Source of the DNA: Candidatus Rokuibacteriota bacterium
Lineage (GTDB): Bacteria > Methylomirabilota > Methylomirabilia > Rokubacteriales > CSP1-6
NCBI GenBank assembly: GCA_016866775.1
Contig: VGLJ01000002.1
Coordinates: 28,174-92,173, forward strand
Reading direction: 5' to 3'
DNA length: 64,000 nt
Positions 1,331-47,838 of this stretch are shown here, in pieces (position 1 is the stretch's first letter; every line of letters begins with the position of its first letter). The notes under the pieces are model-generated. The model was given only the letters and a program-made list of their open reading frames with translations. It was not told where the DNA came from and made no database searches. Made by a program: the position numbers and the translations under genes.

Positions 1331-1378
1331 GCGTGCGACGACGGTCGGAAGGGGGGCGAAGCCCCCCTCCGAGTGTTA
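1331..1378. repeat. REP-like GC-rich palindromic element, copy A (gcgtgcgacgacggtcGGAAGGGGGGcgaagCCCCCCTCCgagtgtta)
   Basis: Near-identical copies at 15921..15966 (inverted) and 54366..54414, half-copy at 63184..63203; its 3' end overlaps the lpdA stop codon. Confidence 0.65.
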
Positions 1379-2758: not shown

Positions 2759-2761
2759 CGC

Positions 2762-4177: not shown

Positions 4178-4180
4178 GGC

Positions 4181-5170: not shown

Positions 5171-5175
5171 CGTCG

Positions 5176-10225: not shown

Positions 10226-10226
10226 G

Positions 10227-14596: not shown

Positions 14597-14604
14597 CACG
14601 TATT

Positions 14605-30253: not shown

Positions 30254-30865
30254 TCAGGCGGCGCCGGCCAGGTAGCCCGCGAGCTTCTTGCGGACGAACA
30301 GCCGCGACCGGTGCACCCGCGACTTCACCGCGGGCAGGCTGATGCCGAGCGTCTCCGCGATGTCCGGGTTCGGCATGCCTTCGACGTCGTGCATCACGAG
30401 CGCCGTGCGGTAGTCCGGCGGCAGCTCGCCGATCGCCCGCTCGAGGACGTCGCGCAGCTCGCCGTTCACGGCGTTGTCGTCCACGCGCGGCGCCCAGTCG
30501 TCCATCGGCTCGAAGTGCAGGCCCTCCCCGTCCATCGCCGGCAGCACGTCGTCGAGCGCGATCTCGTGGGCCTTCGCCTTGCGCGAGCGCAGCTTCTGGT
30601 ACGCGGCGTTCGCGGCGATGCGATAGAGCCAGCTGCCGAACTGCGACTCGCCCTTGAAGCTGGCGATCTTCCGCGCGGCGGTCCACAGCGCGTCCTGCGT
30701 CGCTTCCTCGGCGTCCTCGTTGGAGCCGGTGATCCGGTAGGTCAGCCGGTACACACGGTCGCCGTAGGTGTCGACGAGCAGCTCCGCCGCCGCGGGATCT
30801 TCCGCGCGAAGCGCTTCGAGCAGCGCCGCGTCGCGATCCACTTTCGGACGGGTTTCCGTCGTCAT
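30254..30865 (-). CDS. ECF-type RNA polymerase sigma factor (sigma-70 regions 2 and 4)
   Basis: Region 2 ...YRLTYRITGSNEDAEEATQDALW... and region 4 ...YRTALVMHDVEGMPNPDIAETLGISLPAVKSRVHRSR. Confidence 0.85.
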   Translation of the reverse strand: MTTETRPKVDRDAALLEALRAEDPAAAELLVDTYGDRVYRLTYRITGSNEDAEEATQDALWTAARKIASFKGESQFGSWLYRIAANAAYQKLRSRKAKAHEIALDDVLPAMDGEGLHFEPMDDWAPRVDDNAVNGELRDVLERAIGELPPDYRTALVMHDVEGMPNPDIAETLGISLPAVKSRVHRSRLFVRKKLAGYLAGAA

Positions 30866-31485
30866 CGTCCTCGCTCGTAAAGCGTGAGGTAGTGATTCAT
30901 CTCCTCAACGCACCGATCCATCACTGCGATCTCTTTCGTGAGCTTCGTCAGCAGCATCGCGCCTTCGAGCGATGCCACGAGGAAGTGGGCGACCGCCTGC
31001 GGTCGACACGCCTCGTTCAGCTCGCCGCGCGCCTGCGCCTCCTCGAGCGCCCGGGTCAGGCGCGCGTTCCAGCGCGCGAACAGCCCCGCGAGGCGCGTGC
31101 GGAACCCCTCGTGGACGTCCGCGAGCTCTGCCGCCAGGTTCCCGAAGAGGCAGCCTCCCACACAGTTGCGCGCCTCCACGGCCTCACGCACGCGGCCGAG
31201 GAAGCAGCGGATCTGATCGACCCGCGGCGCGTCGGTATCGGCGAAGCACGGCTCGATCCCCCGGGTGATGAAGCTGTCGATGACCCGGTCAAGGATCGCG
31301 AAGCCGAGGTCTTCCTTGCTCTTGAAGTAGTGATAGAAGTTGCCTTTTCCGACTCCGCTGGCGCTCAGGACGTCATCGAGCGTCGTGCTCTGGTAGCCCT
31401 TGAGGTGGATCAGGCGGGTCGCCGCCTCGATCACCGCCTCGCGGGTGCCCTTGCCTTCTTTCGCCCGGGTCGCTGTCGCCGTCAT
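30862..31485 (-). CDS. TetR-family transcriptional regulator (ATG at 31483-85; alternative TTG at 31500); overlaps the ECF sigma start
   Basis: N-terminal HTH TRLIHLKGYQSTTLDDVLSASGVGKGNFYHYFKSKEDL. Confidence 0.85.
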   Translation of the reverse strand: MTATATRAKEGKGTREAVIEAATRLIHLKGYQSTTLDDVLSASGVGKGNFYHYFKSKEDLGFAILDRVIDSFITRGIEPCFADTDAPRVDQIRCFLGRVREAVEARNCVGGCLFGNLAAELADVHEGFRTRLAGLFARWNARLTRALEEAQARGELNEACRPQAVAHFLVASLEGAMLLTKLTKEIAVMDRCVEEMNHYLTLYERGR

Positions 31486-31662: not shown

Positions 31663-33090
31663 TCAGAAGAGAGGGGTGGCGACCCGAAGCGCGGCCATCA
31701 CCAGGGGCTTCGGGTACACGCCGAGCACGACGACCCCGAGCACGCAGAGCAGGAGCGCGATCGCCAGCGTCGGCGCCACGCGGATGCGCGCCGCGCGCTC
31801 CGGCGCCTCGATGTACATCCGCTTCGCGATGACGAGGTAGTAGAAGAGCGCCACGACGGTGAGGATCGCGCCGACGAGCACGAGCCAGTAGAGGCCGGCC
31901 GCCGCCGCCGCCCAGAAGACGTAGAGCTTCGCCCAGAAGCCCGCAACGAACGGGATCCCGCCGAGCGAGAGCAGGAAGAGCAGCATCGACAGCGCGAGGA
32001 GCGGCGAGCGCTGCGCGAGGCCGCGGAACGCGGCGGTGCTTTCCGACCCTTCGAAGCGCGCGACGGCGTCGACCACGAGGAACGCGCCCATGTTCCCGAA
32101 CACGTACGCGACGAGATAGAAGAGCACCATCGCCGTGCCGGAGGCGGAGGCCGCGGCGAAGCCGACCAGCATGTAGCCGATCTGCGCGATCCCGGAGTAC
32201 GCGAGGAGCCGCTTCGTGTTCTGCTGCGGAAGCGCCATCAGGTTGCCCGCCAGCATCGTGATCGTCGCCAGCCCGGCGGCGATCGGGATCCATGCCACGA
32301 CCCGCTCGCCCGCGCCCTCGTAGTACACGCGGAAGAGCGCGACGAAGCCCGCGGCCTTCGGCGCGACGCTGAGCCACGCGACGAACGGCGTACTCGCCGC
32401 CTCGTAGGTGTCGGGCACCCACATGTGGAACGGAAACGCGGCGATCTTGAACGCGAAGCCGGCGAACGCGGCGAGCAGGCCGAGCACGAGCAGCGGCGAG
32501 CCCGCGGCGAAGGCTTTCGCCACGCCCGCGAGGCTCGTCGTCCCCGCCGCGCCGTAGACGAACGACAGCCCGTACGCCATGACCGCGGACGACACGCTCC
32601 CGACGAGGAAGAACTTGAGCGCGGCCTCCACGGCGATCGCGTCGCGCTTGACGAAGCCCGAGAGCACGTAGAGCGGGATCGACATCAGCTCGAACGCGAG
32701 AAAGAGCAGGATCAGATCGCGCGCGGACGCCAGCACGCACATGCCGAGGAGCGACGTGAGCACGAGCAAGTGGTACTCGCCCGATCGCCGCGCGAAGACC
32801 GGGTCGGTCGACGAGAGCCCCGCGAGCAGGCCGATGAACGTCGCGATCAGGAAGAGCCGCTTGGCGAAGATCGCCAGGCCGTCGAGCACGAACATCCCGC
32901 CGAGGGCCGGGGGGACCGTCGACGCCGGCGCCACGAGGAAGCTCCCGGCGAGCACGACCAGCACACCGATCGTGGCGAGCCATCCGATCGCGCGGCGGTC
33001 GTCGCCGCGCGCGAAGAGCGTGGCGAGGAACACGAGCAGCACCAGTACGCCGAGGCCGATCTCCAGCGCGAAGGGCGACGTGACCGTCAC
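31663..33090 (-). CDS. nuoN: NADH-quinone oxidoreductase subunit N (cluster 2), GTG start overlapping the nuoM stop
   Basis: 14-TM antiporter-like subunit; NuoN-family sequence. Confidence 0.9.
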   Translation of the reverse strand: MTVTSPFALEIGLGVLVLLVFLATLFARGDDRRAIGWLATIGVLVVLAGSFLVAPASTVPPALGGMFVLDGLAIFAKRLFLIATFIGLLAGLSSTDPVFARRSGEYHLLVLTSLLGMCVLASARDLILLFLAFELMSIPLYVLSGFVKRDAIAVEAALKFFLVGSVSSAVMAYGLSFVYGAAGTTSLAGVAKAFAAGSPLLVLGLLAAFAGFAFKIAAFPFHMWVPDTYEAASTPFVAWLSVAPKAAGFVALFRVYYEGAGERVVAWIPIAAGLATITMLAGNLMALPQQNTKRLLAYSGIAQIGYMLVGFAAASASGTAMVLFYLVAYVFGNMGAFLVVDAVARFEGSESTAAFRGLAQRSPLLALSMLLFLLSLGGIPFVAGFWAKLYVFWAAAAAGLYWLVLVGAILTVVALFYYLVIAKRMYIEAPERAARIRVAPTLAIALLLCVLGVVVLGVYPKPLVMAALRVATPLF

Positions 33091-34613
33091 GGGCTCACGA
33101 TCCTCGCGAGCAGGGGCACGGTGGCGGTGTCGACGGGCACGAGCGCGAGGCCGGGCGCCATGCCGAACAGCACGAGCGTGAACACCAGCACCACGATCGC
33201 GACCCACTCCGGTCCCCGCGCGTCGACGAGATCGTGGAAGTGTGGCGACGGCGGGCCCCAGAAGATCTGGCGGACCACGCGCAGCACGTAGACCGCGGTG
33301 AGCAGCGTGCCGAGGACCGCGGGCCACAGCCACCAGCGGTGATCGGAGCGCCACGCGCCCATGAACGTCAGCACCTCGGCGACGAACCCGGCCGTGGCCG
33401 GCAGCCCGAGCGACGACAGGCCGCCGATCGTGAACGCGGTCGCGATGCCGGGCATCGCCGCGCCGAACCCGCCCATCTTGAAGATCTCGCGCGAGTGCGC
33501 CTTCTCGTACACGAGCCCCACCAGCGCGAAGAAGAGGCCGGTCATCACGCCGTGCGCGAACATCTGAAAGACGGAGCCGTTCAGGCCGGCTTCCGTGAGC
33601 GTCGCCGCGCCCAGCATCACGAGGCCCATGTGCGAGACCGACGAGTACGCGATCACGTACTTGAGGTCGACCTGCGCCATCGCCGACAGCGCCCCGTAGA
33701 CGACGTTGATGCACGCGATGCCGCCCACCAGCCACGCGAGGTCCACGGCCCCTTCGGGCAGGAGGCCCATGCCCACGCGCACGACGCCGTACGCGCCGAG
33801 CTTCATCAGCACGCCCGCGTGGAGCATCGAGACCGCCGTCGGCGCGGAGGCGTGGCCGTCCGGCGACCAGGTATGCAGGGGCCAGATGCCGGCGAGGATG
33901 CCGAAGCCGACGTAGAACGCGAGAAAGACCCAGCGCTGGACCCCGAACTCGAACGTGATCGCCTCGAGGTCGAGGAACGAGAACGAGGCGGCGCCGGCAT
34001 TGACGTAGAGTGCGAAGATCCCCACGAGGATGAACGCCGACCCGAAGAGCAGGTAGAGGGTCAGCTTCATCGCCGCGTACTCCTTCGTCCCCACGCCGGT
34101 CTCGCGGAACGCCCACGCGAAGATCCCGCGCGGCCTCACCTCGCCGCTCGAGCCCCAGATGCCGATGAGCAGGTACATCGGGAGCACGGCGAGCTCGTAG
34201 AAGAGGAAGAGGACGAAGAGATCGAGCGAGCAGAAGACGCCGTAGACCCCGGTGACGAGCGCGAGCAGCAGCGCGTAGAACTCCTGGCTCCGCGTCTGCA
34301 CCGTCCACGACGCGAACACGCCCGTGAAGATGATGATCGAGGTGAGCAGCACCATCAGCAGGCTCATGCCGTCGACGCCGAGCTCGTACGAGATCCCGAG
34401 CGGCGGGACGAGCGACAGCTTCTCGTAGAACTGGAAGCCCGCCGCCTCGGTGTCGTACGCCACGTAGATCCACAGCGAGAGGACCGTGGAGATACCCGTC
34501 GTCACGACCGCGATCAGGCGGACCAGGAGCGGCCGGTGGCGCGCCAGGGACATGATCAGCAGCGCGCCGATGAACGGCGACCACGTGATGACGGACAGAA
34601 GCGGAAACCTCAC
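33087..34613 (-). CDS. nuoM: NADH-quinone oxidoreductase subunit M (cluster 2), GTG start overlapping the nuoL stop
   Basis: NuoM/ND4 family signature (WLPDAM-like HTWSPDGH..., antiporter fold). Confidence 0.9.
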   Translation of the reverse strand: MRFPLLSVITWSPFIGALLIMSLARHRPLLVRLIAVVTTGISTVLSLWIYVAYDTEAAGFQFYEKLSLVPPLGISYELGVDGMSLLMVLLTSIIIFTGVFASWTVQTRSQEFYALLLALVTGVYGVFCSLDLFVLFLFYELAVLPMYLLIGIWGSSGEVRPRGIFAWAFRETGVGTKEYAAMKLTLYLLFGSAFILVGIFALYVNAGAASFSFLDLEAITFEFGVQRWVFLAFYVGFGILAGIWPLHTWSPDGHASAPTAVSMLHAGVLMKLGAYGVVRVGMGLLPEGAVDLAWLVGGIACINVVYGALSAMAQVDLKYVIAYSSVSHMGLVMLGAATLTEAGLNGSVFQMFAHGVMTGLFFALVGLVYEKAHSREIFKMGGFGAAMPGIATAFTIGGLSSLGLPATAGFVAEVLTFMGAWRSDHRWWLWPAVLGTLLTAVYVLRVVRQIFWGPPSPHFHDLVDARGPEWVAIVVLVFTLVLFGMAPGLALVPVDTATVPLLARIVSP

Positions 34614-36433
34614 GGCGTCCGCCACCACCGCGCCCAGACCAGCAGCAGCAGCACGCCGAAGGCGACGCCGTAGACGTAATCCTGCGCCTGCCCGCTCTGG
34701 ATCCGGCGGAGCGCGTCGCCCGCGCGCAGGCTCCACGCGCTGCAGACGTTCAGGATGCCGTCGACCACGTAGCGATCGATCCAGCCGACGACGCGCGAGA
34801 ACCCGAGCATCAGCCCGCGGTAGATGCCGCCGTAGATCGCGTCGAGGAAGTAGCGCCGGCGCGCGAGGAAGTCGATGGTCGCGAGCGGGCGGCGCACGAG
34901 CTCGACCGGGATGACGCCCGTGCCGTACATCGCCCACGCGAGCGCGATCCCGCCGCCCGCGAGCGCGAGCGAGAGAACGGTCAACCACACCGGCGGGTGG
35001 TGATCGCCGGGCGCGCCGATCACGAAGCGCACGCCGATCGCGACCGTGAGTGCCGCGAGCAGCCACAGCGGCCCGCGCATCAGCCACGGCGGGTCGTGCG
35101 GAGGGTGCGTGTCGCCGTGCGGATGACCGGGCCCGAAGAACGTGATGAAGACCACGCGGAACATGTAGAACGCCGTGAGGAACGCGGTGACCGCGAGCGC
35201 CACGAACACGCCCGGCCGGCCGCCGGCCACGACGCCTTCGAGGATCGCCTCCTTCGAGAAGAAGCCCGCGAGCGGCCACACGCCGGCCAGCGCCAGCGTG
35301 CCGGCGATGAACACGATGCCGGTGTGCGGCATGAACCGCCAGAGCCCGCCCATGCGGAAGATGTCGTTGGTGCCGACGGCGTGGATGACCGCGCCCGCGC
35401 CGAGGAAGAGCAGCGCCTTGAACACGCCGTGCGTGAGGAGATGGAAGAAGCCCGCGGCCGCGGCGCCCGCGCCCGCGGCGGCCAGCATGTACCCGAGCTG
35501 CGAGACCGTGGAGTACGCGAGCACGCGCTTGATGTCGCTCTCGACGCACGCCATCGTCGCGGCGAGGAGCGCGGTGAACGCGCCGACGCGCGCGACGATC
35601 GTGAGCACGGCCGGCACGAGCACGAGCAGCGGCTCGGAGCGCGCCACGAGGAAGACGCCGGCCGTCACCATCGTGGCCGCGTGGATGAGGGCGGACACGG
35701 GCGTCGGCCCCTCCATCGCGTCCGGCAGCCACACGTGCAGCGGGAACTGCGCCGACTTTCCGACGGCGCCCAGGTAGATCAGGAACATGATCGTGGTGAG
35801 GCCCTCGAGCGGCAGCGTCTGGTCCTTCGCCATCCGGAACAGCGCCTCGAACTCGAAGGTGCCGGTGTTCGACCACAGCATCACGATGCCGGCGACGAAG
35901 CCGAGATCCCCGAGCTTGGTCGTCCAGAACGCCTTCACCGCGGCGCGCGCCGCCGCCGGCCGCGTGTACCAGAAGCCGATCAGCAGGTACGAGCACAGAC
36001 CGACCAGCTCCCAGAACACGAACATCTGGAGGTACGTCGGCGAGAGCACGAGCCCGAGCATCGAGAACGCGAACAGCGACTGGTACACGTAGTAGCGGCC
36101 GAGCGAGCGCGGCGGCTCGTCGTCGAGATACGCGAGCGAGTAGACCTGCACCAGCAGCGACACCAGCGTGACGAGCACGAGCATCGGCGCCGACAGGCCG
36201 TCGAGCAGCAGCCCGACGGTGGCCATCGGGCCGCCGTCGCCCGGCAGCCACGGCACGATCAGCGACCCGCGCGCGCCGTCGCGCCAGATCACGAGCGCCG
36301 TCACGAACGCGGCCGCCGTCGCGGCGGTGCTCACCCAGCCCGCGAGCACGCCGCGCCGGCGCAGCGGCGCCGCGAGCGAGAGGAGGAGAAAGACGGCGAA
36401 CGGCAGCGCGAGGACGACGAGCGGCTTATCCAC
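34610..36433 (-). CDS. nuoL: NADH-quinone oxidoreductase subunit L (cluster 2)
   Basis: NuoL/ND5 signature (...FPLHVWLPDAMEGPTPVSALIHAATMVTAGV...), 607 aa. Confidence 0.9.
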   Translation of the reverse strand: MDKPLVVLALPFAVFLLLSLAAPLRRRGVLAGWVSTAATAAAFVTALVIWRDGARGSLIVPWLPGDGGPMATVGLLLDGLSAPMLVLVTLVSLLVQVYSLAYLDDEPPRSLGRYYVYQSLFAFSMLGLVLSPTYLQMFVFWELVGLCSYLLIGFWYTRPAAARAAVKAFWTTKLGDLGFVAGIVMLWSNTGTFEFEALFRMAKDQTLPLEGLTTIMFLIYLGAVGKSAQFPLHVWLPDAMEGPTPVSALIHAATMVTAGVFLVARSEPLLVLVPAVLTIVARVGAFTALLAATMACVESDIKRVLAYSTVSQLGYMLAAAGAGAAAAGFFHLLTHGVFKALLFLGAGAVIHAVGTNDIFRMGGLWRFMPHTGIVFIAGTLALAGVWPLAGFFSKEAILEGVVAGGRPGVFVALAVTAFLTAFYMFRVVFITFFGPGHPHGDTHPPHDPPWLMRGPLWLLAALTVAIGVRFVIGAPGDHHPPVWLTVLSLALAGGGIALAWAMYGTGVIPVELVRRPLATIDFLARRRYFLDAIYGGIYRGLMLGFSRVVGWIDRYVVDGILNVCSAWSLRAGDALRRIQSGQAQDYVYGVAFGVLLLLVWARWWRTP

Positions 36434-36734
36434 GGAGCAGATCGAGCCGGTCGGCGTCGATGGTGCGACGCACGCGGAAGATGACGATGACGATGGCGAG
36501 ACCGACGGCGACCTCGGCGACCGTGATCGCGATGGTGAACAGCGCGAACAGGAGGCCGATCGGATCGCCGTGCAGCCGCGCGAACGCGACGAGGTTGATG
36601 TTGACCGCGTTCAGCATGAGCTCGATGCCGAGGAGGATCCCGACCGCGTTGCGCCGGGTGAGGACGCCGAAGAGCCCGATCGCGAACACGAGGGCGGCGA
36701 CCACCAGGTAGGAGTGGAGCCCGGGCACGCTCAA
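36426..36734 (-). CDS. nuoK: NADH-quinone oxidoreductase subunit K (cluster 2)
   Basis: GIELMLNAVNINLVAF signature; paralog of 6189..6491. Confidence 0.9.
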   Translation of the reverse strand: MSVPGLHSYLVVAALVFAIGLFGVLTRRNAVGILLGIELMLNAVNINLVAFARLHGDPIGLLFALFTIAITVAEVAVGLAIVIVIFRVRRTIDADRLDLLRG

Positions 36735-37231
36735 TCCTCGCGCGCGAAGTAGAGCGCGCCGAGCAGGGCGATGACGAGCAGTACGCCGAGGAGCTCGAAC
36801 GGCACCGCGTAGGGACCGAGGATCGCCCGCGCGAGCGCGACGGTCTGGTCGCCGCCGGGCGGCGGCGTCGCCGGTGCGGCCGGCGCGGGCCCCGATTGCA
36901 CGAGGAAGCCGACGATGCCCACGAACACGGCCACGGAGACGATGACGCCGTTGACGAGGTCGTGGCTCGACTGGCGGATCCTGAGCCCCACGATCCGCTC
37001 GGTCAGCATGATCGCGAAGACCACGAGCACGACCACACCGCCCGCGTAGAGCAGCAGCTGGACGCCGAAGAGGAACGGCGCGTGGAGAAAGAGGAAGACG
37101 ACGCCGGTGGCGACGAGGGCCACGGCGAGGAAGAGCACCGAGTGGAAGAGGTTCGGCGTGAGCACGACCGCCAGGCTCGAGGCCAGCAGCACCACGGCTA
37201 CGGCCCAGAACCCCGCGGTCGCGGCGGTCAC
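36731..37231 (-). CDS. nuoJ: NADH-quinone oxidoreductase subunit J (cluster 2), GTG start
   Basis: Hydrophobic NuoJ-like sequence; GTGA overlap with the nuoI stop. Confidence 0.85.
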   Translation of the reverse strand: MTAATAGFWAVAVVLLASSLAVVLTPNLFHSVLFLAVALVATGVVFLFLHAPFLFGVQLLLYAGGVVVLVVFAIMLTERIVGLRIRQSSHDLVNGVIVSVAVFVGIVGFLVQSGPAPAAPATPPPGGDQTVALARAILGPYAVPFELLGVLLVIALLGALYFARED

Positions 37232-37791
37232 TCGGTCGACTCCTTCGCCTCTCCCTTCGCGGCCGGCGCCTTCGCCGGCTTCGGCGGCGCCTGCATGTCG
37301 CGGAGCCTGTTGCCCGTCGCCCACGACGGCTCGAAGTCGAGACCGATCGCGTGCAGCCGGTCCTTGTCGAGGAGGAGCTCGCGGCGGTCGGCCGTCGCGA
37401 GGTCGAACGACTTCATCATGATGATCGCGTCGGTCGGGCAGACCTGCACGCACAGCTCGCAGAACTCGCACGCGTAGAGCTCGAGCTGGAAGACCTTCGC
37501 GAAGTTCCGCTTCTCGGCCTTCAGCATCTCGACCTTGATCACCTGCGGCGGGCAGATGTACTCGCAGAGCCGGCAGCCGATGCAGTTCTCCTCGCCCGTC
37601 TCCTTGTCGTAGGTGAGCGCGAGGATCCCGCGGAAGCGGTCGGGGTAGAGGCGCTTGACGTCGGGATAGTGCACGGTGACCGGCTTGCGGCCGAGGTTCT
37701 TCAGCGTCACGCCCATCGCGCGTCCCACCGCGCGCACGAGCCGGCCGAAGTCGCTCCAGAACCCGGCGCCGTTGCGCGCTGCCTCAGGCAC
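37228..37791 (-). CDS. nuoI: NADH-quinone oxidoreductase subunit I (cluster 2)
   Basis: CIGCRLCEYICP and CEFCELCVQVCP ferredoxin motifs. Confidence 0.9.
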   Translation of the reverse strand: MPEAARNGAGFWSDFGRLVRAVGRAMGVTLKNLGRKPVTVHYPDVKRLYPDRFRGILALTYDKETGEENCIGCRLCEYICPPQVIKVEMLKAEKRNFAKVFQLELYACEFCELCVQVCPTDAIIMMKSFDLATADRRELLLDKDRLHAIGLDFEPSWATGNRLRDMQAPPKPAKAPAAKGEAKESTE

Positions 37792-38770
37792 CGGCCCCTC
37801 CGCGCAGCGCGACCCAGAACGCGGTCACGAGCAGCAGGCCCAGCGTCGCCGGCAGCAGCAGCTTCCACGACACCGCGAGGATCTGGTCCACGCGGATGCG
37901 CACGAAGCTCCAGCGCACCCACGTGACGACGAGAAAGACCAGCATCGCCTTCAGGAGGAACCAGAGCACGCCGATCGCCGGGATGTCGGAGCCGGGGCCC
38001 AGCCAGCCGCCGAGGAAGAGCAGCGCGCCGAGGAAGGAGCTCGCGATCATGTGGGCGTACTCGCCGAGCTGGATGATCGCGAACTTCATCCCGCTGTACT
38101 CGACGCGGAAGCCCGCGACCAGCTCCGACTCCGCCTCGAGGATGTCGAACGGCACGCGGTTCTCGGCGGCGAGCGTCGCGACGAGGAACGCGACGAAGCC
38201 GAGCTGGCCGATGACCGGATACGCGACGAACCAGAGGCCCTGCTGCGCGGCGACGATCGCGGACATCTGCAGCGAGCCGGCGAGCACCACCGGGATGAGC
38301 GCGGCGAAGACGAACGGCAGGTCGTAGGAGATGATCTGGTTCACCGCGCGCATCGCGCTCAGCAGCGCGTACTTGTTGTTCGAGCCCCAGCCGCCCATGA
38401 AGAGGCCGACGATCTCGAGCGACGACACCGCGAGGAAGAACAGCACGCCGATGTTGAGGTCGGCGAGGCCCAGCCGGGGCGCGAACGGGATCGTCGCGAA
38501 GATGAGCACGCACGGGATGAGGAACACGATCGGCGCGAGGTTGTAGACCCACCGGTCGGCCGCGCGCGGCACGATGTCTTCCTTCATCATCAGCTTGAGC
38601 GCGTCGGCGATCGGCTGCAGCAGCCCGTGCGGGCCGACGCGGTACGGCCCGATCCGCGACTGCATCCGCGCCGCGAACTTGCGCTCGAGAAGCGTCACGT
38701 ACGTGACCATCCCGATCACGGCGTTGAGCAGGATGAAGGCGGCGAGCGCGTCCAGCGCGAGATGCTCCAT
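37784..38770 (-). CDS. nuoH: NADH-quinone oxidoreductase subunit H (cluster 2)
   Basis: NuoH/ND1 signature (ERKFAARMQSRIGPYRVGP..., EAESELVAGFRVEYSG). Confidence 0.95.
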   Translation of the reverse strand: MEHLALDALAAFILLNAVIGMVTYVTLLERKFAARMQSRIGPYRVGPHGLLQPIADALKLMMKEDIVPRAADRWVYNLAPIVFLIPCVLIFATIPFAPRLGLADLNIGVLFFLAVSSLEIVGLFMGGWGSNNKYALLSAMRAVNQIISYDLPFVFAALIPVVLAGSLQMSAIVAAQQGLWFVAYPVIGQLGFVAFLVATLAAENRVPFDILEAESELVAGFRVEYSGMKFAIIQLGEYAHMIASSFLGALLFLGGWLGPGSDIPAIGVLWFLLKAMLVFLVVTWVRWSFVRIRVDQILAVSWKLLLPATLGLLLVTAFWVALRGGAGA

Positions 38771-38773
38771 GGC

Positions 38774-39937
38774 CTAGCGGTCCACCTCGCCGAAGACCGG
38801 ATCCACGGAGCCCATGATGGCGACGACGTCCGCCACCTTGCAGCCCGGGATGATGTGCGGGAGGATCGCGAGGTTCGAGAACGAGGCGCCGCGCACCTTC
38901 ATGCGATAGGGCTTCGGGCCGCCGTCGGCGACGATGTAGAAGCCGATCTCGCCGCGCGCGCCCTCGACGCGCGCGTACCCTTCCCCCTTCGGCACGCGCA
39001 CCTGCCCGACCGACTTCACGCCCGGCCGCGACGAGATCGGCCCCTCGGGCAGCCCGTCGAGCGCCTGGCGGACGATCTTGATCGACTCGCGGAATTCGAC
39101 CATGCGCACGCGGTAGCGCGCGTAGCAGTCGCCCGCCGTCTCCACGGGCACCTTGAAGTCGAAGTCCTGGTAGGACGAGTACGGCTCCGCGCGGCGCAGG
39201 TCGAAGTCGATCCCGGAGCCGCGCGCGAGCGGGCCCGACACGCCGACCTCCTGCGCGAGGGTCGCGCTGATCACCCCGACGCCCTGCGTGCGCACGAGGA
39301 AGAACGCGTTGTCCTCGAGCATCGCCTCGTACTCGTCGAGGCGCTGCTCGATGAGCGCGATCGTCTCGCGGCACGTCTGCGCCCAGCCCGGCGGGATGTC
39401 GTAGCGCGTGCCGCCGACCTGGTGGAAGCCGTAGAGCAGGCGCGCGCCGGTGAGCGACTCGAAGAGATCGAGGATCAGCTCGCGCTCGCGGATGCAGTAG
39501 AGGAACACCGTGGCGCCGCCGCCGAGTGCCCCGCCCATGTCGAGGCACCACGTGCCGAGCCAGAGGCAGTGCGAGGCGATCCGCTGGAGCTCGGCGACGA
39601 TCACGCGCAGGTACTGCGCGCGCTTCGGGACCTCGAAGCTCGCCACCTTCTCAACGGCGGTGACGTAGGCGAGCTCGGCGGTCATCGCGGCCACGTAGTC
39701 CGTCTTCGACGCGATCGTCGGGTACTGCACGTACGTCAGCATCTCGCCGAGCTTCTCGTGACAGCGATGCAGGTAGCCGATGACCGCGTCGACGGCGACG
39801 ACGGTCTCGCCCTCGAGCGTGAGGATCGCGCGGAAGACGCCGTGGGCGGACGGGTGCTGCGGCCCCATGTTCATCACGAGGCGCTCGTTGCCCCCGTAGC
39901 CGAGCTCGATGACTTTCCGCGATTCGCTGTCCGCCAT
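38774..39937 (-). CDS. nuoD: NADH-quinone oxidoreductase subunit D (cluster 2); true start MADSESRKVIELGYGG
   Basis: NMGPQHPSAHGVFR...C-terminal GSVDPVFGEVDR. Confidence 0.9.
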   Translation of the reverse strand: MADSESRKVIELGYGGNERLVMNMGPQHPSAHGVFRAILTLEGETVVAVDAVIGYLHRCHEKLGEMLTYVQYPTIASKTDYVAAMTAELAYVTAVEKVASFEVPKRAQYLRVIVAELQRIASHCLWLGTWCLDMGGALGGGATVFLYCIRERELILDLFESLTGARLLYGFHQVGGTRYDIPPGWAQTCRETIALIEQRLDEYEAMLEDNAFFLVRTQGVGVISATLAQEVGVSGPLARGSGIDFDLRRAEPYSSYQDFDFKVPVETAGDCYARYRVRMVEFRESIKIVRQALDGLPEGPISSRPGVKSVGQVRVPKGEGYARVEGARGEIGFYIVADGGPKPYRMKVRGASFSNLAILPHIIPGCKVADVVAIMGSVDPVFGEVDR

Positions 39938-39942
39938 CCGGC

Positions 39943-40578
39943 CTACTTCATCGGCGAGGACGGCGCCGGGATCAGGATGATCGACTTCATGTCGACGAGC
40001 AGCGGCGTCGCCTTGCCGAGGAATGCCTGCCACTCGGGATCCGCGATCGCCCTGGCGCGCACCGACGCACGCTCGTTGAGGTCGCGGTACGCCCACATGT
40101 GCACGGCCTCGTTGAGCTGGCCCGCTTCCGTCTGCCACAGGCCCACGTTCTTCGAGTACTTCTCGCGCACGGGCATGATGTCCTTGATGTGGCCGATCCA
40201 TTCGCCGATCCGGCCCGTGTGCGACCGGTACCAGCGGAGCTCGTAGAGCCATCCGCTGTCCGCGGGCGGCTCGAGCGGCAGCTGCGGCGAGAGGATCTTG
40301 TTCTCCTGCGCGAGGATCAGCGTGCGGATGCGCGGCACGTACTCCTTCGTCCACGCGTCGTTCTTCGCGAGCTGACCGCGCAGCCGCTCGCGCTCGTCGA
40401 GGCTCGGATACTCCCAGAGGTGGACGTACCGGTTGAGCGTCCCGAACTCGGTCGTCCACGAGCCGGCGAGCCGGCCGTAGTCGTCACCGCGGATCTTGCG
40501 GCCGACCTCGACGTTCAGCTTGAGGTACTCGGGCAGCTTGCCCGGCGTCAGCGTGTAGGTGCGCAGCTCGTAGATCAT
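39943..40578 (-). CDS. tandem NIPSNAP-domain protein embedded between nuoC and nuoD of cluster 2
   Basis: Two repeats of YELRTYTL...G.W..E.G.LN..VHLWEY.SL.ER (second: YELRWYRSH...VHMWAYRDLNERA). Confidence 0.8.
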   Translation of the reverse strand: MIYELRTYTLTPGKLPEYLKLNVEVGRKIRGDDYGRLAGSWTTEFGTLNRYVHLWEYPSLDERERLRGQLAKNDAWTKEYVPRIRTLILAQENKILSPQLPLEPPADSGWLYELRWYRSHTGRIGEWIGHIKDIMPVREKYSKNVGLWQTEAGQLNEAVHMWAYRDLNERASVRARAIADPEWQAFLGKATPLLVDMKSIILIPAPSSPMK

Positions 40579-40597
40579 GCGTCCTTCCTCTCTCGCC

Positions 40598-41057
40598 TCA
40601 GCGGTACGGCGAATAGTCGGCGTCCACGAAGTCCTTGCGCAGCGGGTGGCCGGCCGGCCAGTCCTGTCCGAGCAGGATGCGCCGGAGATCGGGATGGCCG
40701 TCGAAGACCACGCCGAACATGTCGTAGCACTCGCGCTCCATCCAGTCCGCGCCCTTCCAGACGTCCGTCAGCGTCGGGCAGTGCACGTTGCCCGCGCCGA
40801 GCTTCGTCCGCAGCATCAGCGCCACGCGGCTCTCGAGGTTCTCGACCCGGCAGACGACTTCGAAGCCCTGCTCCTTCCAGTCGATCGCGCTGAGCCAGCT
40901 GAAGTAGAGACAGCCGATGGCGTCATGGGCGATCCGCGCGGCCGCGTGCCAGCGATCGACCGGCACGTCGAGCGTCACCAGCGCGCCCGCGACGGTCGGG
41001 GTCAGACCGAGGTGCTGTTCGAGGCGGGCGGCCGCGACGTCGAACGCGATCTTCAAG
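40598..41057 (-). CDS. nuoC: NADH-quinone oxidoreductase subunit C (cluster 2), probable TTG start
   Basis: [25 protein letters not shown] signature. Confidence 0.85.
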
Positions 41058-41685
41058 AGGTGGCGGCCGGCGTGACGACGCGCGTGCCCGTCTTCTGGAA
41101 CTCCGCGACCTGCTCCTGGAGCTTGAGCAGCCCGTACATGAGGGAATCCGGCGTGGGCGGACAGCCGGGGACGTAGACGTCGACGGGCACGACGCGATCC
41201 ACGCCCTTGACCACGTGGTAGCCGTGACGGAACGGGCCGCCGGAATTCGCGCACGACCCCATCGACACCACCCACTTCGGGTCGGGCATCTGGTCGTAGA
41301 TGCGCTTGAGCATCGGCGCCATCTTGATGGTCACGGTGCCCGACACGATCATCAGATCGGAGTGGCGGGGCGAGGCCCACGGGACCATGCCGAATCGCTC
41401 GACGTCGAAGCGGCTGGCGAACGTGGCCATCATCTCGATCGCGCAGCACGCCAGGCCGAACGTCACGGGCCAGAGCGAGGACTTGCGCGCCCAGTTGAAG
41501 ATCTTGTCCGTCGACGTGGTGACGATCCAGCCGCCGGGCATGTGGTGGATCGCGTCGGCGATCGACGCGAGCGTGTTCGACGTCTTGTCGTCGCCGGCCC
41601 GGGTCTGATGGTACTTCTCCCACTCCTGCAGATCCTTCACGTCGCTCCAGCCGGGCGGCGGGACCTGGGGCAGGGGCCGCTTCAC
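41053..41685 (-). CDS. nuoB: NADH-quinone oxidoreductase subunit B (cluster 2), GTG start overlapping the nuoA stop
   Basis: [12 protein letters not shown]...[10 protein letters not shown]...VPGCPPTPD motifs. Confidence 0.9.
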
Positions 41686-42035
41686 TTCCACTCCAGCACT
41701 CCCTCGCGATACGCGTACACCCAGCCGAGCATCACGATCGCGATGAACGCGGCCATCACCCAGAACGCGCCGAGGCCGGCGGTGCGCACGACGAGGGCCC
41801 ACGGGATGACGAAGACCGCCAGCGCGTCGAAGACGATGAAGACCAGCGCGACGAGGTAGAACCCGACCGGGAACTGGACCCATGCAGAGCCGATGGGCTC
41901 GGCACCACATTCGTAGTTCTCGAGCTTCACAGCATCGGGCCGCGCCGGCCGGAGCAGCCACGCGACGCCGATCGACACCACGCCGAACGCGACGATGAAG
42001 GCGGCGAATATCGCGACTGCCAGGTACTCGGACAC
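41682..42035 (-). CDS. nuoA: NADH-quinone oxidoreductase subunit A (cluster 2), GTG start, GGAGG RBS
   Basis: [12 protein letters not shown]...NuoA signature; upstream AT-rich CATATATACT -10-like box. Confidence 0.9.
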
Positions 42036-42673: not shown

Positions 42674-42690
42674 CCCGCAATTGACGGCTG

Positions 42691-43588: not shown

Positions 43589-43894
43589 ATGGGATTCTTT
43601 CGGCGCGAAATAGAAGTGACGCTCAAGATGCTCGGCGTGGCGTTGCTCGTCGGGCTCATCGTTCTCCCCGTCGCGTGGGGGTACGAGCAGCGGCGCCAGG
43701 CGCGCACGTGGCAGAACGTGGCCTGTGCCTATCGCATCAAGGAGGTCACGCGCACGGCGCCGTTCATCCAGAACGTCGAGCGCGCTCCCGACGCGTGCAC
43801 GGCGCTCGCGCGGCCTGGATTCCAGCTGTCGGAGACGGAGTTCGTGCCGCTGCCGACGGCGGCCGCGGGCCTTTCCTCGACGAGGACTCGCTAG
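43589..43894 (+). CDS. small hypothetical membrane protein (101 aa)
   Basis: GGGGGAG RBS 7 nt upstream; one TM helix LGVALLVGLIVLPVAW. Confidence 0.45.
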   Translation: MGFFRREIEVTLKMLGVALLVGLIVLPVAWGYEQRRQARTWQNVACAYRIKEVTRTAPFIQNVERAPDACTALARPGFQLSETEFVPLPTAAAGLSSTRTR

Positions 43895-45366
43895 GACGCG
43901 GCGAGCGCTTCGGCTTTCCGTTCACCGTCCGGGCCTGAGAGCACCAGCAGACGGTAGTCGCGTGCGAGACGCGTCGCCTGACTGAAGTCGGCGCTCTCGC
44001 ACGCGCCGTCCCGCAACGCCTTCTCCGCGGCGGCCAGGGTCGCCGCGAGGACGCGATCGAGATGGGCGGTCATCCGCCGCCGCACGTCGCCGTACCCCTT
44101 CACCAGCTGACCCGCGCGCGCGACCTCACGCGCGAGCTCGATGTTCCACGTCGAGCAGCGACGCACGACCGCGAGCCATCGCGTGATCAGCGCGAACTCC
44201 TCGTGCGCGCGGTAGGAGATCGGCCGGATGCGTCGCAGACGGCCGAGCAGCCACACGCGCAGGTACCCCAGCACGGTCGTCGTGCGGACGTGCTGCGTGA
44301 GGGTCGGGCGGCCGTGCGGCCAGCGTCGCTCGGCCCAGCGCGCGAACGGCGCGACGAGCGCGTGCGGGAGGATGCCGTAGATCTCGTCGAGGTCCGGCTT
44401 CAGGTAGTCCGTGACTTCGACGACCGCGCCGGGTGTCCGCGCTTCGCCCTGGATGCGCGTGAAGCGCGCCGCCCGCGTCTTCAGGTCGGCCACGCGAATG
44501 GCGTCCTCGTACGTCATCCACAGCGCCAGGTACCGCGCGACGTGCGCGGCGACTTCCGCGTCGCCGGCGACGAACGGCTGCAGCAGCGCGAGATAGCGTT
44601 CGGCGTAGCGCGCGTCCTGGTAATCGATCAGCCGCGGCAGCGCCTGGCGGACGATGGGACGGACGGCCTCGGGCATCGCCGCGACGCGCGGGTCGTCGGC
44701 GGCCGGCGCCGCGTGCGCCGCGCCGTTCCGTGCCGCAGCCGCCACGGGTCCGCGGCGCGCCAGCGCGAGGCCGAGCTCGAAACCGCGCAGGTTCGCGTCG
44801 ACCTGGACCCCCTTCGCGCGGATCGCGCCGCGATACGCGTCGTCCTTCAGCGGCAGCACGCCGCTGCCCGCGAGCGCGCCGAGGAGGATGGCGTTGACCT
44901 CGGTGCGGTGCTCGCGCGCGAGCGCCAGCGCGTCGAACGCGTGCAGCGTGCGCGAGAACGCGCGCGCCGCGTCGACGAGGCGATCCGCGGGATAGATCGC
45001 GTTGCCCAGCGCCAGCTTCTCCTGGATCGAGTAGAGGCGGTGCGTGCTGGTGATGATCGTGGTGCGCGCGGGCGACGGAAACCCGAGCTCGATCATCCGC
45101 CCCACCTCGAGGAGCTCCGGCGCCAGGAGCACGTCGAGCGCGCCGGGCACCGGATACAAGGACACCGTGGGCTCGCGATCCCCGGGCGGGAAGATCTCCA
45201 CGTAGTAGGTCGTCGAGCCGGTGCGCTGCGCGACGCCGGGGATGGACGTCCCGTGCGCGACCTGGCCGTCGGCGATCGCCGCTTCGACGAGCCACTCGGA
45301 GAGCACGCCACCGCCCTGCCCCCCGACCGCGGGAATGAGCACGCTGACGAAGCCGGCCTCGTTCAC
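43891..45366 (-). CDS. iorB: indolepyruvate/2-oxoacid:ferredoxin oxidoreductase subunit beta-family protein (GTG start overlapping iorA stop)
   Basis: N-terminal pyruvate-ferredoxin oxidoreductase gamma-like domain (VLIPAVGGQGGGVLSEWL) plus C-terminal extension. Confidence 0.75.
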   Translation of the reverse strand: MNEAGFVSVLIPAVGGQGGGVLSEWLVEAAIADGQVAHGTSIPGVAQRTGSTTYYVEIFPPGDREPTVSLYPVPGALDVLLAPELLEVGRMIELGFPSPARTTIITSTHRLYSIQEKLALGNAIYPADRLVDAARAFSRTLHAFDALALAREHRTEVNAILLGALAGSGVLPLKDDAYRGAIRAKGVQVDANLRGFELGLALARRGPVAAAARNGAAHAAPAADDPRVAAMPEAVRPIVRQALPRLIDYQDARYAERYLALLQPFVAGDAEVAAHVARYLALWMTYEDAIRVADLKTRAARFTRIQGEARTPGAVVEVTDYLKPDLDEIYGILPHALVAPFARWAERRWPHGRPTLTQHVRTTTVLGYLRVWLLGRLRRIRPISYRAHEEFALITRWLAVVRRCSTWNIELAREVARAGQLVKGYGDVRRRMTAHLDRVLAATLAAAEKALRDGACESADFSQATRLARDYRLLVLSGPDGERKAEALAAS

Positions 45367-47507
45367 TGTGCGAGCGCGGCGAGGCGGCCGATGACGGCGC
45401 GGCGGACGCGCGCGAGGAGGCGCCGCCACCAGCCCGGGTTGGCGACGATCTTCATCTCGTAGAACGACGGGCAGAGGACGGCGGCATGCGCGACTTCTCC
45501 GCACACGCCGCAGCCGACGCACGTCTCGTCGACGTGCGCGATCGGGTCCTCGCGGAGCGCGTCCGGGCTCGGACGCAGCGTCAGCGACGGACAGCCATTG
45601 AACCGCATGCACGAGTGGTCGCCCGTGCACACGTCGGGATCGACGCCGAAGCGCGGCTGCTCCACGGTCTTGCCGGCGGCGGCCCGCGCGCGCTTGCGCG
45701 GCCGCTCGCGTCGCTGGCGCTCCAGCATGCACTCGCCCTTGGCGATGACGACCTTGAGGCCCGGCGCGCGCGTGGTGAGCGCGTCGCGCAGCGTGCCGAT
45801 CATCTCGGGGATGCGATACGACTCGACGGTCTTGATCCACGTCACGCCGAGGCCGCGGAGCGCGCCGGGGATGGTGGTCGTCAGGCGCTCGCCGCGCGCG
45901 TTGGTCCCGGTCGAGGGCACGTGGTGCTGGCCGGTGGCCGCCGCGTAACCGTTGTCGATGATGACGAACACGGCGTCCTGCTTGTTGTAGACGGCGTTGG
46001 CGACGCCGGTCGTGAGCCCATTGTGCCAGAAGCCGCCGTCGCCCATCACCGCGATCGTGCGCTTGCCGAAGAGCGGCGCCACCGCGCTGTTCGACGCGAG
46101 GCCCATGCCGTAGCCGAGCACCGAGTTGCCGATGTTGAACGGCGCCTGCGTCGAGAACGTGTTGCAGCCGATGTCGTGCGAGACGTGCGTGTCGCCGATC
46201 GCGGGCTCGCGCTCGCGCAGGATCTTCATCGCGCTGAACAGCGGGCGCTCCGGGCAGCCGGTGCAGAACGACGGCGGGCGCTTCGCGACCGGCTCGCGCA
46301 GCACGGCGGTGATGCGCTCCTGGTGCTCGGTGAGACGGCGATAGCGGTCGGCGATGGCGCCAGCCGGCACGCCGCGCGGCGAGCAGCCCGCGAAGAACTT
46401 CGCGAGCCCCCCCACGACCAGGCGGGGCACGTATTCGCCGTTCGGCGCGAGCAGGTCCTTGCCGTGGATCTCGACGTCGAGGCGCGCCTCGTGCGCGAGC
46501 GCCTGCAGCTCGCGCTCGATGAAGTTCGGCATCCCCTCCTCGACCACGAAGATCTGACGCTTGCCGCGCATGAACGCGATGAGCTGCTCCGGCACCAGCG
46601 GATGCAGGCAGTTGAGGACGAGCAAGGGGACCGCCGTGCGCCCGTAGATGTCGGCGACGCCGAGCTCCGCGAGCCCGCGCACCGTGGTGTTCCACTGGCC
46701 GCCCTGCATCACGATGCCGATCTCACGATCGTCGCCGTCGAAGATCTCGTTCAGAGCGTGATCGATGACGTACCGGCGCGCCGCGGGCAGGCGGTGCTCG
46801 AACTTCTGCGCCTCCATGGCGTACGTGAACGGGGGCAGGTTGATGCGATCGATCGAGAAGCTCTGCGCGCCGAGCGGCAACAGCGTGCTCACGGCCGGCT
46901 TCACGTTGTCCTTGCAGACGAGCGTGCCGCGCATGTGGCAGGCGCGGATGCGGATCGAGAAGAAGACGGGCTCGTGGCAGGCCTCCGAGAGGCCGAAGCC
47001 TTCCTCGACGAAGCGGGCGAACGACTGGAGGCTGTTGCGCGGATCGAGCAGCGGCACGGAGGACTTCAGCGCCGCCGAGTGCGTGCGCTCCTGCAGGATC
47101 GAGGAGCCTTCGCCGTAGTCCTCGCCGATGACGATCAGGCATCCGCCGCGCACGCCCGCCGACGCGACGTGCGAGAGCGCGTCCGAGGCGACGTTCGTGC
47201 CGACCACCGACTTCCACGTGACGGCGCCACGCACCGGATAGTTGATGGACGCGCCCAGCAGCGCGGCCGCGGCGGCTTCGCTGCCCGACTGCTCGAAGTA
47301 CACGCCCATGGGCCTGAGCAGGACGTCGTTCGCGTCGGCGAGCACGTCGATCATGTGGGAGACCGGCGCGCCCGGATAGCCGCCCACGTAGCTCACGCCG
47401 GACTGCAGGAGGGCCTTCGTGATCGCCAGGATCCCTTCCCCGTGGAGGATCTGGCCGGCGCCGTAGCCGAGCTGCTTGACGTCTTCGGCGAAGGTCCGCT
47501 CGCCCAT
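45363..47507 (-). CDS. iorA: indolepyruvate/2-oxoacid:ferredoxin oxidoreductase subunit alpha (TPP, 2x[4Fe-4S])
   Basis: TPP-binding GDGGFWHNG, cysteine clusters CTGCPERP...CMRFNGCPS...CVGCGVCGE; TATAAT 6 nt upstream of the ATG (leaderless-like). Confidence 0.85.
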   Translation of the reverse strand: MGERTFAEDVKQLGYGAGQILHGEGILAITKALLQSGVSYVGGYPGAPVSHMIDVLADANDVLLRPMGVYFEQSGSEAAAAALLGASINYPVRGAVTWKSVVGTNVASDALSHVASAGVRGGCLIVIGEDYGEGSSILQERTHSAALKSSVPLLDPRNSLQSFARFVEEGFGLSEACHEPVFFSIRIRACHMRGTLVCKDNVKPAVSTLLPLGAQSFSIDRINLPPFTYAMEAQKFEHRLPAARRYVIDHALNEIFDGDDREIGIVMQGGQWNTTVRGLAELGVADIYGRTAVPLLVLNCLHPLVPEQLIAFMRGKRQIFVVEEGMPNFIERELQALAHEARLDVEIHGKDLLAPNGEYVPRLVVGGLAKFFAGCSPRGVPAGAIADRYRRLTEHQERITAVLREPVAKRPPSFCTGCPERPLFSAMKILREREPAIGDTHVSHDIGCNTFSTQAPFNIGNSVLGYGMGLASNSAVAPLFGKRTIAVMGDGGFWHNGLTTGVANAVYNKQDAVFVIIDNGYAAATGQHHVPSTGTNARGERLTTTIPGALRGLGVTWIKTVESYRIPEMIGTLRDALTTRAPGLKVVIAKGECMLERQRRERPRKRARAAAGKTVEQPRFGVDPDVCTGDHSCMRFNGCPSLTLRPSPDALREDPIAHVDETCVGCGVCGEVAHAAVLCPSFYEMKIVANPGWWRRLLARVRRAVIGRLAALAQ

Positions 47508-47838
47508 GGCGCCATTATAGGCGTGTATCAAACACTGGACATTCACGGGCGTGCGGCGGGGTCGCTAGCGTCGATGGAATGGCCACTCTCTCGTCGGCGT
47601 CGACGGTGATCTAAGCGAACGAAAGAAGGAGGGTCGCCATCCGCTGTGGAAGCTGCGCTACGCGAAGGCTGAGTCGATCCGACTCATCCGTTGGATGTAC
47701 TACGCGCCGGACGTTCCTTGTCTCGCACGGACGCGTGCGAAGGCCGAGCGATTCCTTTCGCCGCTCGGTCGGAGCAACACTCGTCCTGCAGGTCGACCGC
47801 GAGTCGGGTGGCTGTACAATGATTCGGCCTCCGAGAGT

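Follow-up and report, generated by a model that had tools for sequence, protein, structure and literature searches.

We analysed a 64,000-nucleotide stretch of contig VGLJ01000002.1 from a Candidatus Rokuibacteriota bacterium (hereafter the window; G+C content ~70%), in which two clusters of nuo genes for respiratory complex I lie on the minus strand. Open reading frames were selected by codon bias and then typed with Pfam; the suffix 1 or 2 on a gene or protein name denotes its cluster. Cluster 2 (31663-42035) comprises 12 genes in the order nuoA2-B2-C2-NIPSNAP-D2-H2-I2-J2-K2-L2-M2-N2, i.e., 11 core genes, every one of which reaches or exceeds its Pfam gathering score, and a gene for a tandem-NIPSNAP protein (Table 1). 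Adjacent genes overlap by 4-19 nt or are separated by gaps of 3-19 nt. When promoters and terminators were scanned for inside the cluster, the only above-chance site was the promoter-like site of the TetR gene that follows it. Domains of NuoE, NuoF and NuoG (2Fe-2S_thioredx, Complex1_51K and NuoG) were found neither by Pfam in the 12 genes nor in at least 80 related loci. As an operon, cluster 2 is complete for the 11-subunit complex I, an already known form without the NADH module, and it is best read, from its gene content and motifs, as coding for a self-sufficient 11-subunit quinone reductase, an isozyme distinct from that of cluster 1. A sequence-only reading of this DNA had described the locus as nuoA, B, C, D and H-N without E, F and G; the gene calls and Pfam bore this out, and the limits it had given, 31663 and 42035, fall exactly on the stop of nuoN2 and the start of nuoA2. 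That gene description stands, but it left out the NIPSNAP gene, the lipA and pdh genes around cluster 1 and the conservation of both layouts across the lineage.

Table 1. Genes of the two nuo clusters and their neighbours, in window positions.
Feature	Coordinates	Strand	Product	Supporting match or remark
nuoA2	41682..42035	-	117 aa	Pfam Oxidored_q4, 1.8e-31
nuoB2	41053..41691	-	212 aa	Pfam Oxidored_q6
nuoC2	40598..41056	-	152 aa, short NdhJ-like form	Pfam Complex1_30kDa, 4.9e-37
tandem-NIPSNAP gene	39943..40578	-	211 aa	Pfam PF07978, two domains, 4.2e-51
nuoD2	38774..39937	-	387 aa	Pfam Complex1_49kDa
nuoH2	37784..38770	-	328 aa	Pfam NADHdh, 2.7e-110; NCBIfam NuoH NF004741, 328 bits (cut-off 305)
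nuoI2	37228..37791	-	187 aa	Pfam Fer4 families
nuoJ2	36731..37231	-	166 aa	Pfam Oxidored_q3
nuoK2	36426..36734	-	102 aa from TTG start (JGI gene call: 100 aa)	Pfam Oxidored_q2
nuoL2	34610..36433	-	607 aa	Pfam Proton_antipo_N and Proton_antipo_M; NCBIfam NuoL, 606 bits (cut-off 556)
nuoM2	33087..34628	-	513 aa (JGI gene call: 508 aa)	Pfam Proton_antipo_M; TIGR01972, 465 bits
nuoN2	31663..33090	-	475 aa	Pfam; TIGR01770, 370 bits
nuoA1-B1-C1-D1-E1-F1-G1-H1-I1-J1-K1 (cluster 1)	6189..14599	-	NADH-type, no L/M/N	Pfam
lipA	14605..15594	-	lipoyl synthase	Pfam Radical_SAM and LIAS_N; 5 nt upstream of nuoA1
pdhA, pdhB, E2, lpd	1376..6177	-	NADH-producing 2-oxoacid dehydrogenase complex	Pfam; JGI gene calls
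IorA-like and IorB-like genes	43891..47546	-	2-oxoacid:ferredoxin oxidoreductase	NCBIfam; upstream of cluster 2
TetR-family regulator and ECF sigma factor genes	30254..31485	-		Pfam; downstream of nuoN2; conserved neighbours

The functional motifs of the cluster-2 proteins are intact. By alignment, NuoB2 has all four cysteines of the N2 cluster (CC..C..C-P) and NuoI2 carries two CxxCxxCxxxCP motifs, i.e., 2x4 cysteines, with a Lys/Ala/Pro-rich C-terminal tail, while NuoD2, aligned with Thermus Nqo4, keeps the quinone-site residues H38 and Y87 (Thermus numbering). The key membrane Glu and Lys residues are retained in K2, L2, M2 and N2, among them both membrane Glu residues of NuoK2 and, in NuoM2, the Glu of transmembrane helix (TM) 5, the Lys of TM7 and the Glu of TM12; NuoL2 aligns over residues 58-599 with NdhF1 (6hum_F), the C-terminal lateral-helix region included. 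NuoB2 has a conserved N-terminal extension of ~50 aa that NuoB1 does not have. Two further sequence features were noted. NuoA2 reads FDALAVF and so does not have the Glu of the conserved loop motif FD-x-E that is present in NuoA1 and in the NuoA of Candidatus Omnitrophota, and these residues predominate among 69 Rokubacteria orthologues. Relative to Omnitrophota NuoM, NuoM2 has an insertion of ~18 aa (SGEVRPRGIFAWAFRETG) right after the conserved GIWGS motif.

To place the enzyme among its relatives, we compared the subunits with solved structures and with NCBIfam models. NuoD2 scores best against NdhH of the cyanobacterial NDH-1 (6hum_H, 362 bits), followed by Thermus (325 bits) and mitochondrial (~292 bits) chains, whereas NuoD1 has its top score against the mitochondrial 49-kDa subunit. 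The best matches of L2, N2 and K2 are likewise NDH-1 subunits (NdhF1, 411 bits; NdhB, 278 bits; NdhE, 90 bits); M2 is the exception, with nearly equal scores for Paracoccus NuoM (272 bits) and NdhD1 (266 bits). Judged by these scores, cluster 2 is, M2 apart, most similar among solved structures to the ferredoxin-dependent cyanobacterial NDH-1. The cyanobacterial and chloroplast enzyme also has no N-module, and it accepts electrons from ferredoxin, aided by small additional subunits (PMC11238625). It differs in that the host of cluster 2 is non-photosynthetic, and none of the Pfam families of NdhL, NdhM, NdhN, NdhO, NdhS and NdhV matches any of the 12 cluster-2 operon proteins. Other members of the wider family were rejected. 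An F420H2 dehydrogenase (Fpo) does not fit, the scores falling below the NCBIfam cut-offs (NuoD2 against FpoD, 380 with a cut-off of 600; H2, 285 with 475; L2, 427 with 1050), and no FpoF-like input gene is present in cluster 2, where the only extra gene is that of NIPSNAP. Nor does a membrane-bound [NiFe] hydrogenase (Ech, Mbh or Hyf): neither the N-terminal GPQHPSAHG nor the C-terminal DPVFGEVDR of NuoD2 contains a cysteine, so the ligands of a NiFe site are missing, and the large subunits of Mbh and FHL score far lower with NuoD2 (181 and 143 bits) than does NdhH.

Cluster 1 encodes NuoA-K, including E, F and G, and stops short of L, M and N, as had been claimed for it and as Pfam supports. 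Its genes are embedded in a longer string: pdhA begins 11 nt after nuoK1, and lipA-nuoA1..K1-pdhA-pdhB-E2-lpd (1376-15594, minus strand) is a single series with gaps of at most 11 nt. The E2 product scores 443 bits in NCBIfam against a cut-off of 445. NuoD1 (11923-13311) is 462 aa long, and an insertion of ~75 aa divides its Pfam match into two parts; NuoG1 (8606-10225) is short, at 539 aa, and just below the NCBIfam NuoG cut-off. The coupling residues of NuoK1, NuoJ1 and NuoA1 are retained, both membrane Glu residues of K1 among them, so that the core encoded by cluster 1 appears suited to docking onto a chain of antiporter subunits. The eight subunits present in both clusters are clearly diverged (31-51% identity between paralogues; NuoK 100 versus 102 aa), and E/F/G and L/M/N are single-copy and split between the clusters within the window: tblastn of E1, F1, G1, L2, M2 and N2 against all 64 kb gave no further copies. 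Both clusters lie wholly in the window, no nuo genes occur in the ~9 kb beyond either of its ends, and additional nuoEFG or nuoLMN copies at extensions of the clusters were thus not found. By Pfam and the tblastn search of the window, neither cluster by itself encodes a canonical 14-subunit complex I, as cluster 2 has no E/F/G and cluster 1 no L/M/N.

The two layouts were then followed in relatives, through 80 GTDB species loci around NuoD2 (82-90% identity), almost all from genomes labelled Candidatus Rokubacteria, Rokuibacteriota or Methylomirabilota, and 80 metagenome loci around NuoH1 (79-97% identity). Of the species loci, 76 preserve the gene order A2-B2-C2-NIPSNAP-D2-...-N2 as far as their contigs reach. 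For cluster 1, nuoK1 runs into pdhA in every metagenome locus that spans the junction and lipA lies upstream wherever the locus extends to it; L/M/N genes are found within 10 kb of cluster 1 in none of the 80. This conservation across related loci shows that both layouts are lasting traits of the lineage rather than products of faulty assembly.

The relationship between the clusters became clearer from the nearest relatives of cluster 1. When NuoH1 was searched against 1.84 billion representative proteins, the nearest group among the matches listed was Candidatus Omnitrophota, at 61% identity. Cluster 1 and the Omnitrophota enzyme are 91% identical in B, 62% in D, 61% in F, 58% in I, 57% in H, 52% in K and 51% in G, all subunits other than B falling between 38% and 62%, whereas cluster 2 is only 32-48% identical to it. 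The NuoG of Omnitrophota is likewise short, at 527-544 aa. The value for NuoB1 (13809-14267), measured against NuoB at L174:4077-4586, is far above those of the other subunits; very strong constraint or a recent transfer are possible reasons. Three Omnitrophota gene contexts were inspected. One (L174) has nuoA-B-C-D-EF-G-H-I and, after it, nuoJ-K-L-M-N as an operon of its own in convergent orientation; in the other two (L172 and L175) the cluster ends at nuoI and no J-N genes occur within 10 kb. In these last two, the nuoC/nuoD junction of the NADH-type cluster contains a gene for a TPR-repeat protein of ~310 aa (L172:4260-5186 and L175:4131-5084); proteins of this kind are typical of assembly helpers. 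At L175:1-2204, a second, divergently transcribed cluster of nuoA, nuoB (243 aa) and a fused nuoCD adjoins the nuoA-I cluster that has no J-N, a two-cluster layout that possibly parallels the arrangement in Rokubacteria.

On these identities, cluster 1 is an isozyme of another lineage, orthologous to the NADH-type enzyme of Omnitrophota. The sequence-only reading had offered, as one of two options, two distinct complexes: an ancestral-type enzyme of 11 subunits that would draw its electrons from another source, and a truncated enzyme with the NADH module. The 11-subunit half of this option is supported by the complete gene set of cluster 2, its intact motifs, its likeness to NDH-1, its conservation in more than 80 species and the different descent of cluster 1, for which the D/F/H comparison gives 57-62% with Omnitrophota against 32-36% with cluster 2.

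The gene that sets cluster 2 apart is the one inserted between nuoC2 and nuoD2, from which it is separated by 19 nt and 5 nt, respectively. Its product matches PF07978 twice, with 171.8 bits against a cut-off of 22.3, and from its sequence is soluble, hydrophilic and basic (isoelectric point 9.2). It contains no cysteine through which to bind an Fe-S cluster, and for that reason is not an electron carrier of this type. An AlphaFold2 model of high confidence (pLDDT 94.8, pTM 0.90) has two ferredoxin-like halves that build a pseudo-dimeric alpha+beta barrel. In Foldseek, each half superposes on 1vqy, 2ap6 or 5k9f with target-normalised TM-scores of 0.90-0.93, and the nearest folds are those of single-domain NIPSNAP proteins, which have no assigned function, and of 'putative monooxygenases' of the tandem ABM-like kind. 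We found no match to an accessory fold already known from complex I, since no complex I chain, and hence no NDH-1 counterpart, is among the 50 PDB matches listed.

The position of this gene is highly conserved. In the 76 species loci that have it, it lies between nuoC2 and nuoD2, in a gap of roughly 590-1,010 nt (mostly 650-700), and 60 columns are invariant among 55 orthologues. In the remaining four loci (L016, L033, L055 and L073) nuoC2 abuts nuoD2, with gaps of 6-84 nt, and no NIPSNAP gene was found anywhere in the locus; since these four fall into two groups by subunit identity, the gene was probably lost at least twice. Homologue searches, in which the best 120 matches were listed, were extended from a divergent orthologue, and among the matches listed NIPSNAP homologues then went down to ~45% identity. 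Three divergent Methylomirabilota loci (L176-L178) have the gene at the same nuoC/nuoD junction of the same 12-gene operon, within different flanks; in these, NIPSNAP has drifted to 49-60% identity while NuoD2 is still at 78-84%. Wherever we inspected the context of a family member, the gene was thus tied to the 12-gene nuo operon. The most economical reading would be that NIPSNAP is a candidate accessory, donor-docking or assembly protein of the Q-module. In the literature searched, no paper linked NIPSNAP with nuoC, nuoD or bacterial NADH dehydrogenase clusters, and the insertion of such a gene into a nuo operon appears to be undescribed.

NIPSNAP could instead be a small enzyme or stress protein that came to sit in the operon by chance and has no role in the complex. 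The four species in which nuoC2 directly abuts nuoD2 would fit this, as would the much faster evolution of NIPSNAP than of the core subunits and the fact that its closest folds are cofactor-free, monooxygenase-like barrels. Chance, however, has to account for the same junction in 76 species and in the three divergent loci despite their differing flanks, for the tight spacing on both sides and for the invariant columns, and the TPR protein at the same junction in Omnitrophota suggests that the position is used for helpers of the Q-module. We consider a mere passenger unlikely and keep to a Q-module protein.

We further considered where the cluster-1 enzyme would obtain its L, M and N subunits. 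In the Omnitrophota-type lineage, split encoding of the membrane arm is a trait of the enzyme, so that Rokubacteria could plausibly have a third nuoLMN locus, and on the present analysis we somewhat favour such a locus elsewhere in the genome; it is at least as likely as sharing with cluster 2. L2, M2 and N2 were examined as relocated L/M/N of the cluster-1 lineage, which the comparison did not support: they are 37-45% identical to Omnitrophota L/M/N, with 0.64-0.77 phmmer bits per residue, which is the level of paralogues (0.72 for D2 against Omnitrophota NuoD) and far below that of orthologues (1.2-1.3 for H and D). With thin sampling, M2 is closer to Omnitrophota NuoM (395 bits) than to any NuoM in the PDB (at most 272 bits).

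The other option of the earlier reading was a mix-and-match assembly, in which the single L2M2N2 set would complete both the cluster-2 core and the NADH-type core of cluster 1. That L/M/N are single-copy within the window, that none lie within 10 kb of cluster 1 in related loci or beyond the window ends, that K1 keeps both membrane Glu residues linking to NuoN and that the complementary layout is conserved phylum-wide would all agree with it. Against it, L2/M2/N2 resemble the cluster-1 lineage only as paralogues, and any hybrid must cross lineages. We also asked whether K1 and K2 are alike through a shared NuoN, and rejected this: NuoK1 scores 107 bits against Mycobacterium, 99 against Thermus and 78 against K2 (phmmer; 85 by BLAST), and K1 and K2, at 47% identity, are no closer than K1 is to the Mycobacterium and Thermus proteins, so that no shared-partner constraint is visible. 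In addition, L/M/N are the last genes of operon 2, with no internal promoter detected, which would be an awkward supply for two complexes, and separate membrane-arm operons are usual in the Omnitrophota relatives of cluster 1. We therefore regard this assembly as improbable, and give equally little weight to the variant in which the modules are interchangeable and L2M2N2 docks both to A2-K2 plus NIPSNAP and to the unrelated A1-K1 core.

More doubtful still is that cluster 1 encodes a naturally truncated NuoA-K NADH:quinone oxidoreductase, weakly coupled or uncoupled and co-expressed with pdh for rapid re-oxidation of NADH: nuoK1 does run directly into pdhA in a conserved operon that includes lipA, and subcomplexes of the Escherichia coli and Yarrowia enzymes without distal antiporter subunits keep redox activity at a lower proton stoichiometry, but the complex usually becomes unstable when NuoN or NuoM is lost, no naturally occurring relative of complex I is known to do without antiporter-like subunits altogether, the coupling residues of NuoK1, NuoJ1 and NuoA1 are retained, and the Omnitrophota orthologue clearly has J-K-L-M-N.

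The donor of cluster 2 would be other than NADH, as the NADH-binding subunit is absent, and probably reduced ferredoxin, in view of the conserved neighbourhood of an IorAB-type 2-oxoacid:ferredoxin oxidoreductase: IorA and IorB genes lie upstream of cluster 2 in most of the 80 species loci. In the window, IorB scores 476 bits against NCBIfam NF006179 (cut-off 348), and the IOR_alpha match is below its cut-off. In the mechanism we propose, electrons would enter the cluster-2 enzyme at NuoI from a low-potential one-electron carrier, likeliest reduced ferredoxin, of which the IorAB-type oxidoreductase next door could be one source. From the two NuoI clusters the electrons would move to the N2 cluster of NuoB and on to quinone at the NuoD/NuoB/NuoH site, while protons would be translocated by NuoL/M/N and the NuoH/A/J/K channel. 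NIPSNAP may bind the face of NuoC/NuoD that the missing N-module leaves bare, with an accessory, donor-docking or assembly function. Cluster 1 would be an NADH-oxidising isozyme whose transcript also includes lipA and the genes of the pyruvate dehydrogenase (PDH) complex, which produces NADH. Since cluster 1 is fused to the pdh genes and cluster 2 is neighboured by IorAB, the arrangement suggests separate entry points for NADH (cluster 1 and PDH) and for ferredoxin (cluster 2 and IorAB).

Taken as a whole, i.e., cluster 2 as an enzyme of the known 11-subunit (NUO11) type with a NIPSNAP accessory and cluster 1 as a separate NADH isozyme whose L/M/N lie elsewhere, we judge this proposal to be reasonably probable. 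Several observations count against it. IorAB is set off from nuoA2 by three genes on the opposite strand and is not co-transcribed with cluster 2, and there is no ferredoxin gene in or adjoining the cluster-2 operon. No third nuoLMN locus was found within 10 kb of either cluster in ~125 related loci. No complex I subunit of similar fold to NIPSNAP is among the 50 Foldseek matches listed, and NIPSNAP is dispensable to the extent that 4 of 80 species do without it.

A last alternative concerns the direction of electron flow. Cluster 2 might normally run in reverse, with the proton-motive force driving electrons from quinol to ferredoxin for IorAB-type or other ferredoxin-dependent enzymes. The proposed coupling site and the conserved 2-oxoacid:ferredoxin oxidoreductase would be the same, and a reverse role has been proposed for the unusual complex I of Nitrospina (PMC3578206). 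The sequence carries no signal of direction, however, and Rokubacteria have been described as heterotrophs with aerobic respiration (PMC5712423), in which oxidation of ferredoxin is the simpler role. Reverse operation as the normal mode thus seems very unlikely to us, and the forward reaction from reduced ferredoxin is preferred.

Much of this architecture has precedents: documented cases include 11-subunit enzymes, split nuo operons and genomes that encode two isozymes (PMC4453560, PMC11238625, PMC3578206). The 11-subunit enzyme is widespread, its donor is unidentified and extra donor-docking subunits are 'not excluded' (PMC11238625); the donor is not encoded in its operon (PMC11238625, PMC4758237). 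Cluster 2 shares with NUO11 the 11 core genes in the same order, the absence of NuoEFG, the intact N2, NuoI and quinone-site motifs and a donor encoded outside the operon. It differs by the tandem-NIPSNAP gene between nuoC and nuoD and by the NADH-type cluster without L/M/N that lies 17 kb away. Rhodobacter, Geobacter, Sulfurospirillum and Nitrospina are reported to carry two divergent nuo clusters per genome, for complex I isozymes of different clades, and for one of the two the use of ferredoxin or flavodoxin has been proposed (PMC4453560, PMC11238625, PMC3578206). In the genome studied here, however, the NADH-type cluster is no full nuoA-N set but stops at nuoK and continues into pdh genes. 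With Omnitrophota, cluster 1 shares orthology, the short NuoG and an operon split inside the membrane-arm genes, and the extra gene at the nuoC/nuoD junction in two of the three Omnitrophota loci recalls NIPSNAP in cluster 2. The split comes after nuoI in Omnitrophota and after nuoK in Rokubacteria cluster 1, the extra gene codes for a TPR protein in an NADH-type cluster in the former and for NIPSNAP in an 11-subunit cluster in the latter, and Omnitrophota have no pdh fusion. In Campylobacter and Helicobacter, NuoX and NuoY replace NuoE and NuoF and are tied to flavodoxin, a non-NADH donor. In that system, which is mentioned in PMC11238625, the extra genes occupy the E/F positions and NuoG is kept, whereas cluster 2 has no E/F/G and its extra gene lies between C and D. 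A survey preprint based on hidden Markov models only defines 'Nuo-Partial' clusters, and two Rokubacteria genome papers (one of them PMC5712423) give no specifics of complex I. The conserved lipA-nuoA..K-pdh-lpd operon without L/M/N, beside a full cluster lacking E/F/G, was not met with in the literature searched and appears to be undescribed.

Outside cyanobacteria the donor and docking subunits of the 11-subunit enzyme are unknown, and NIPSNAP is a concrete candidate for a subunit on the input side. A conserved NADH-type nuo operon that ends at nuoK raises the question of whether a complex I core can do without L/M/N or borrow them; sharing of L2M2N2, if true, would be a natural case of a distal membrane arm shared across lineages. 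The pairings of NADH with PDH and of ferredoxin with IorAB suggest a two-pool routing of reductant in an abundant uncultured soil and freshwater lineage.

The surroundings of cluster 2 hold some further features. On the 3' side, a spacer of 177 nt that contains a GC-rich hairpin separates nuoN2 from the next gene, that of TetR, whose promoter-like site (31538-31510) comes after nuoN2; in the species loci, the TetR gene, the ECF sigma factor gene and L21/L27/Obg genes are found downstream. Three genes (42140-43894, plus strand) are divergent from nuoA2. The first, a conserved neighbour in many related loci, encodes a membrane protein of 177 aa that weakly matches YdjM; the others encode a response regulator (263 aa) and a protein of 101 aa that hits no family. 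Finally, seven of the metagenome-assembled genomes in GTDB (L025, L027, L045, L048, L051, L055 and L059), which bear the labels Nitrosocosmicus, Verrucomicrobiia, Acidoferrum, Limnocylindria, Dormiibacterota and Binatia, carry a cluster of the Rokubacteria type with NuoD2 at 84-86% identity; these contigs are probably mis-binned.

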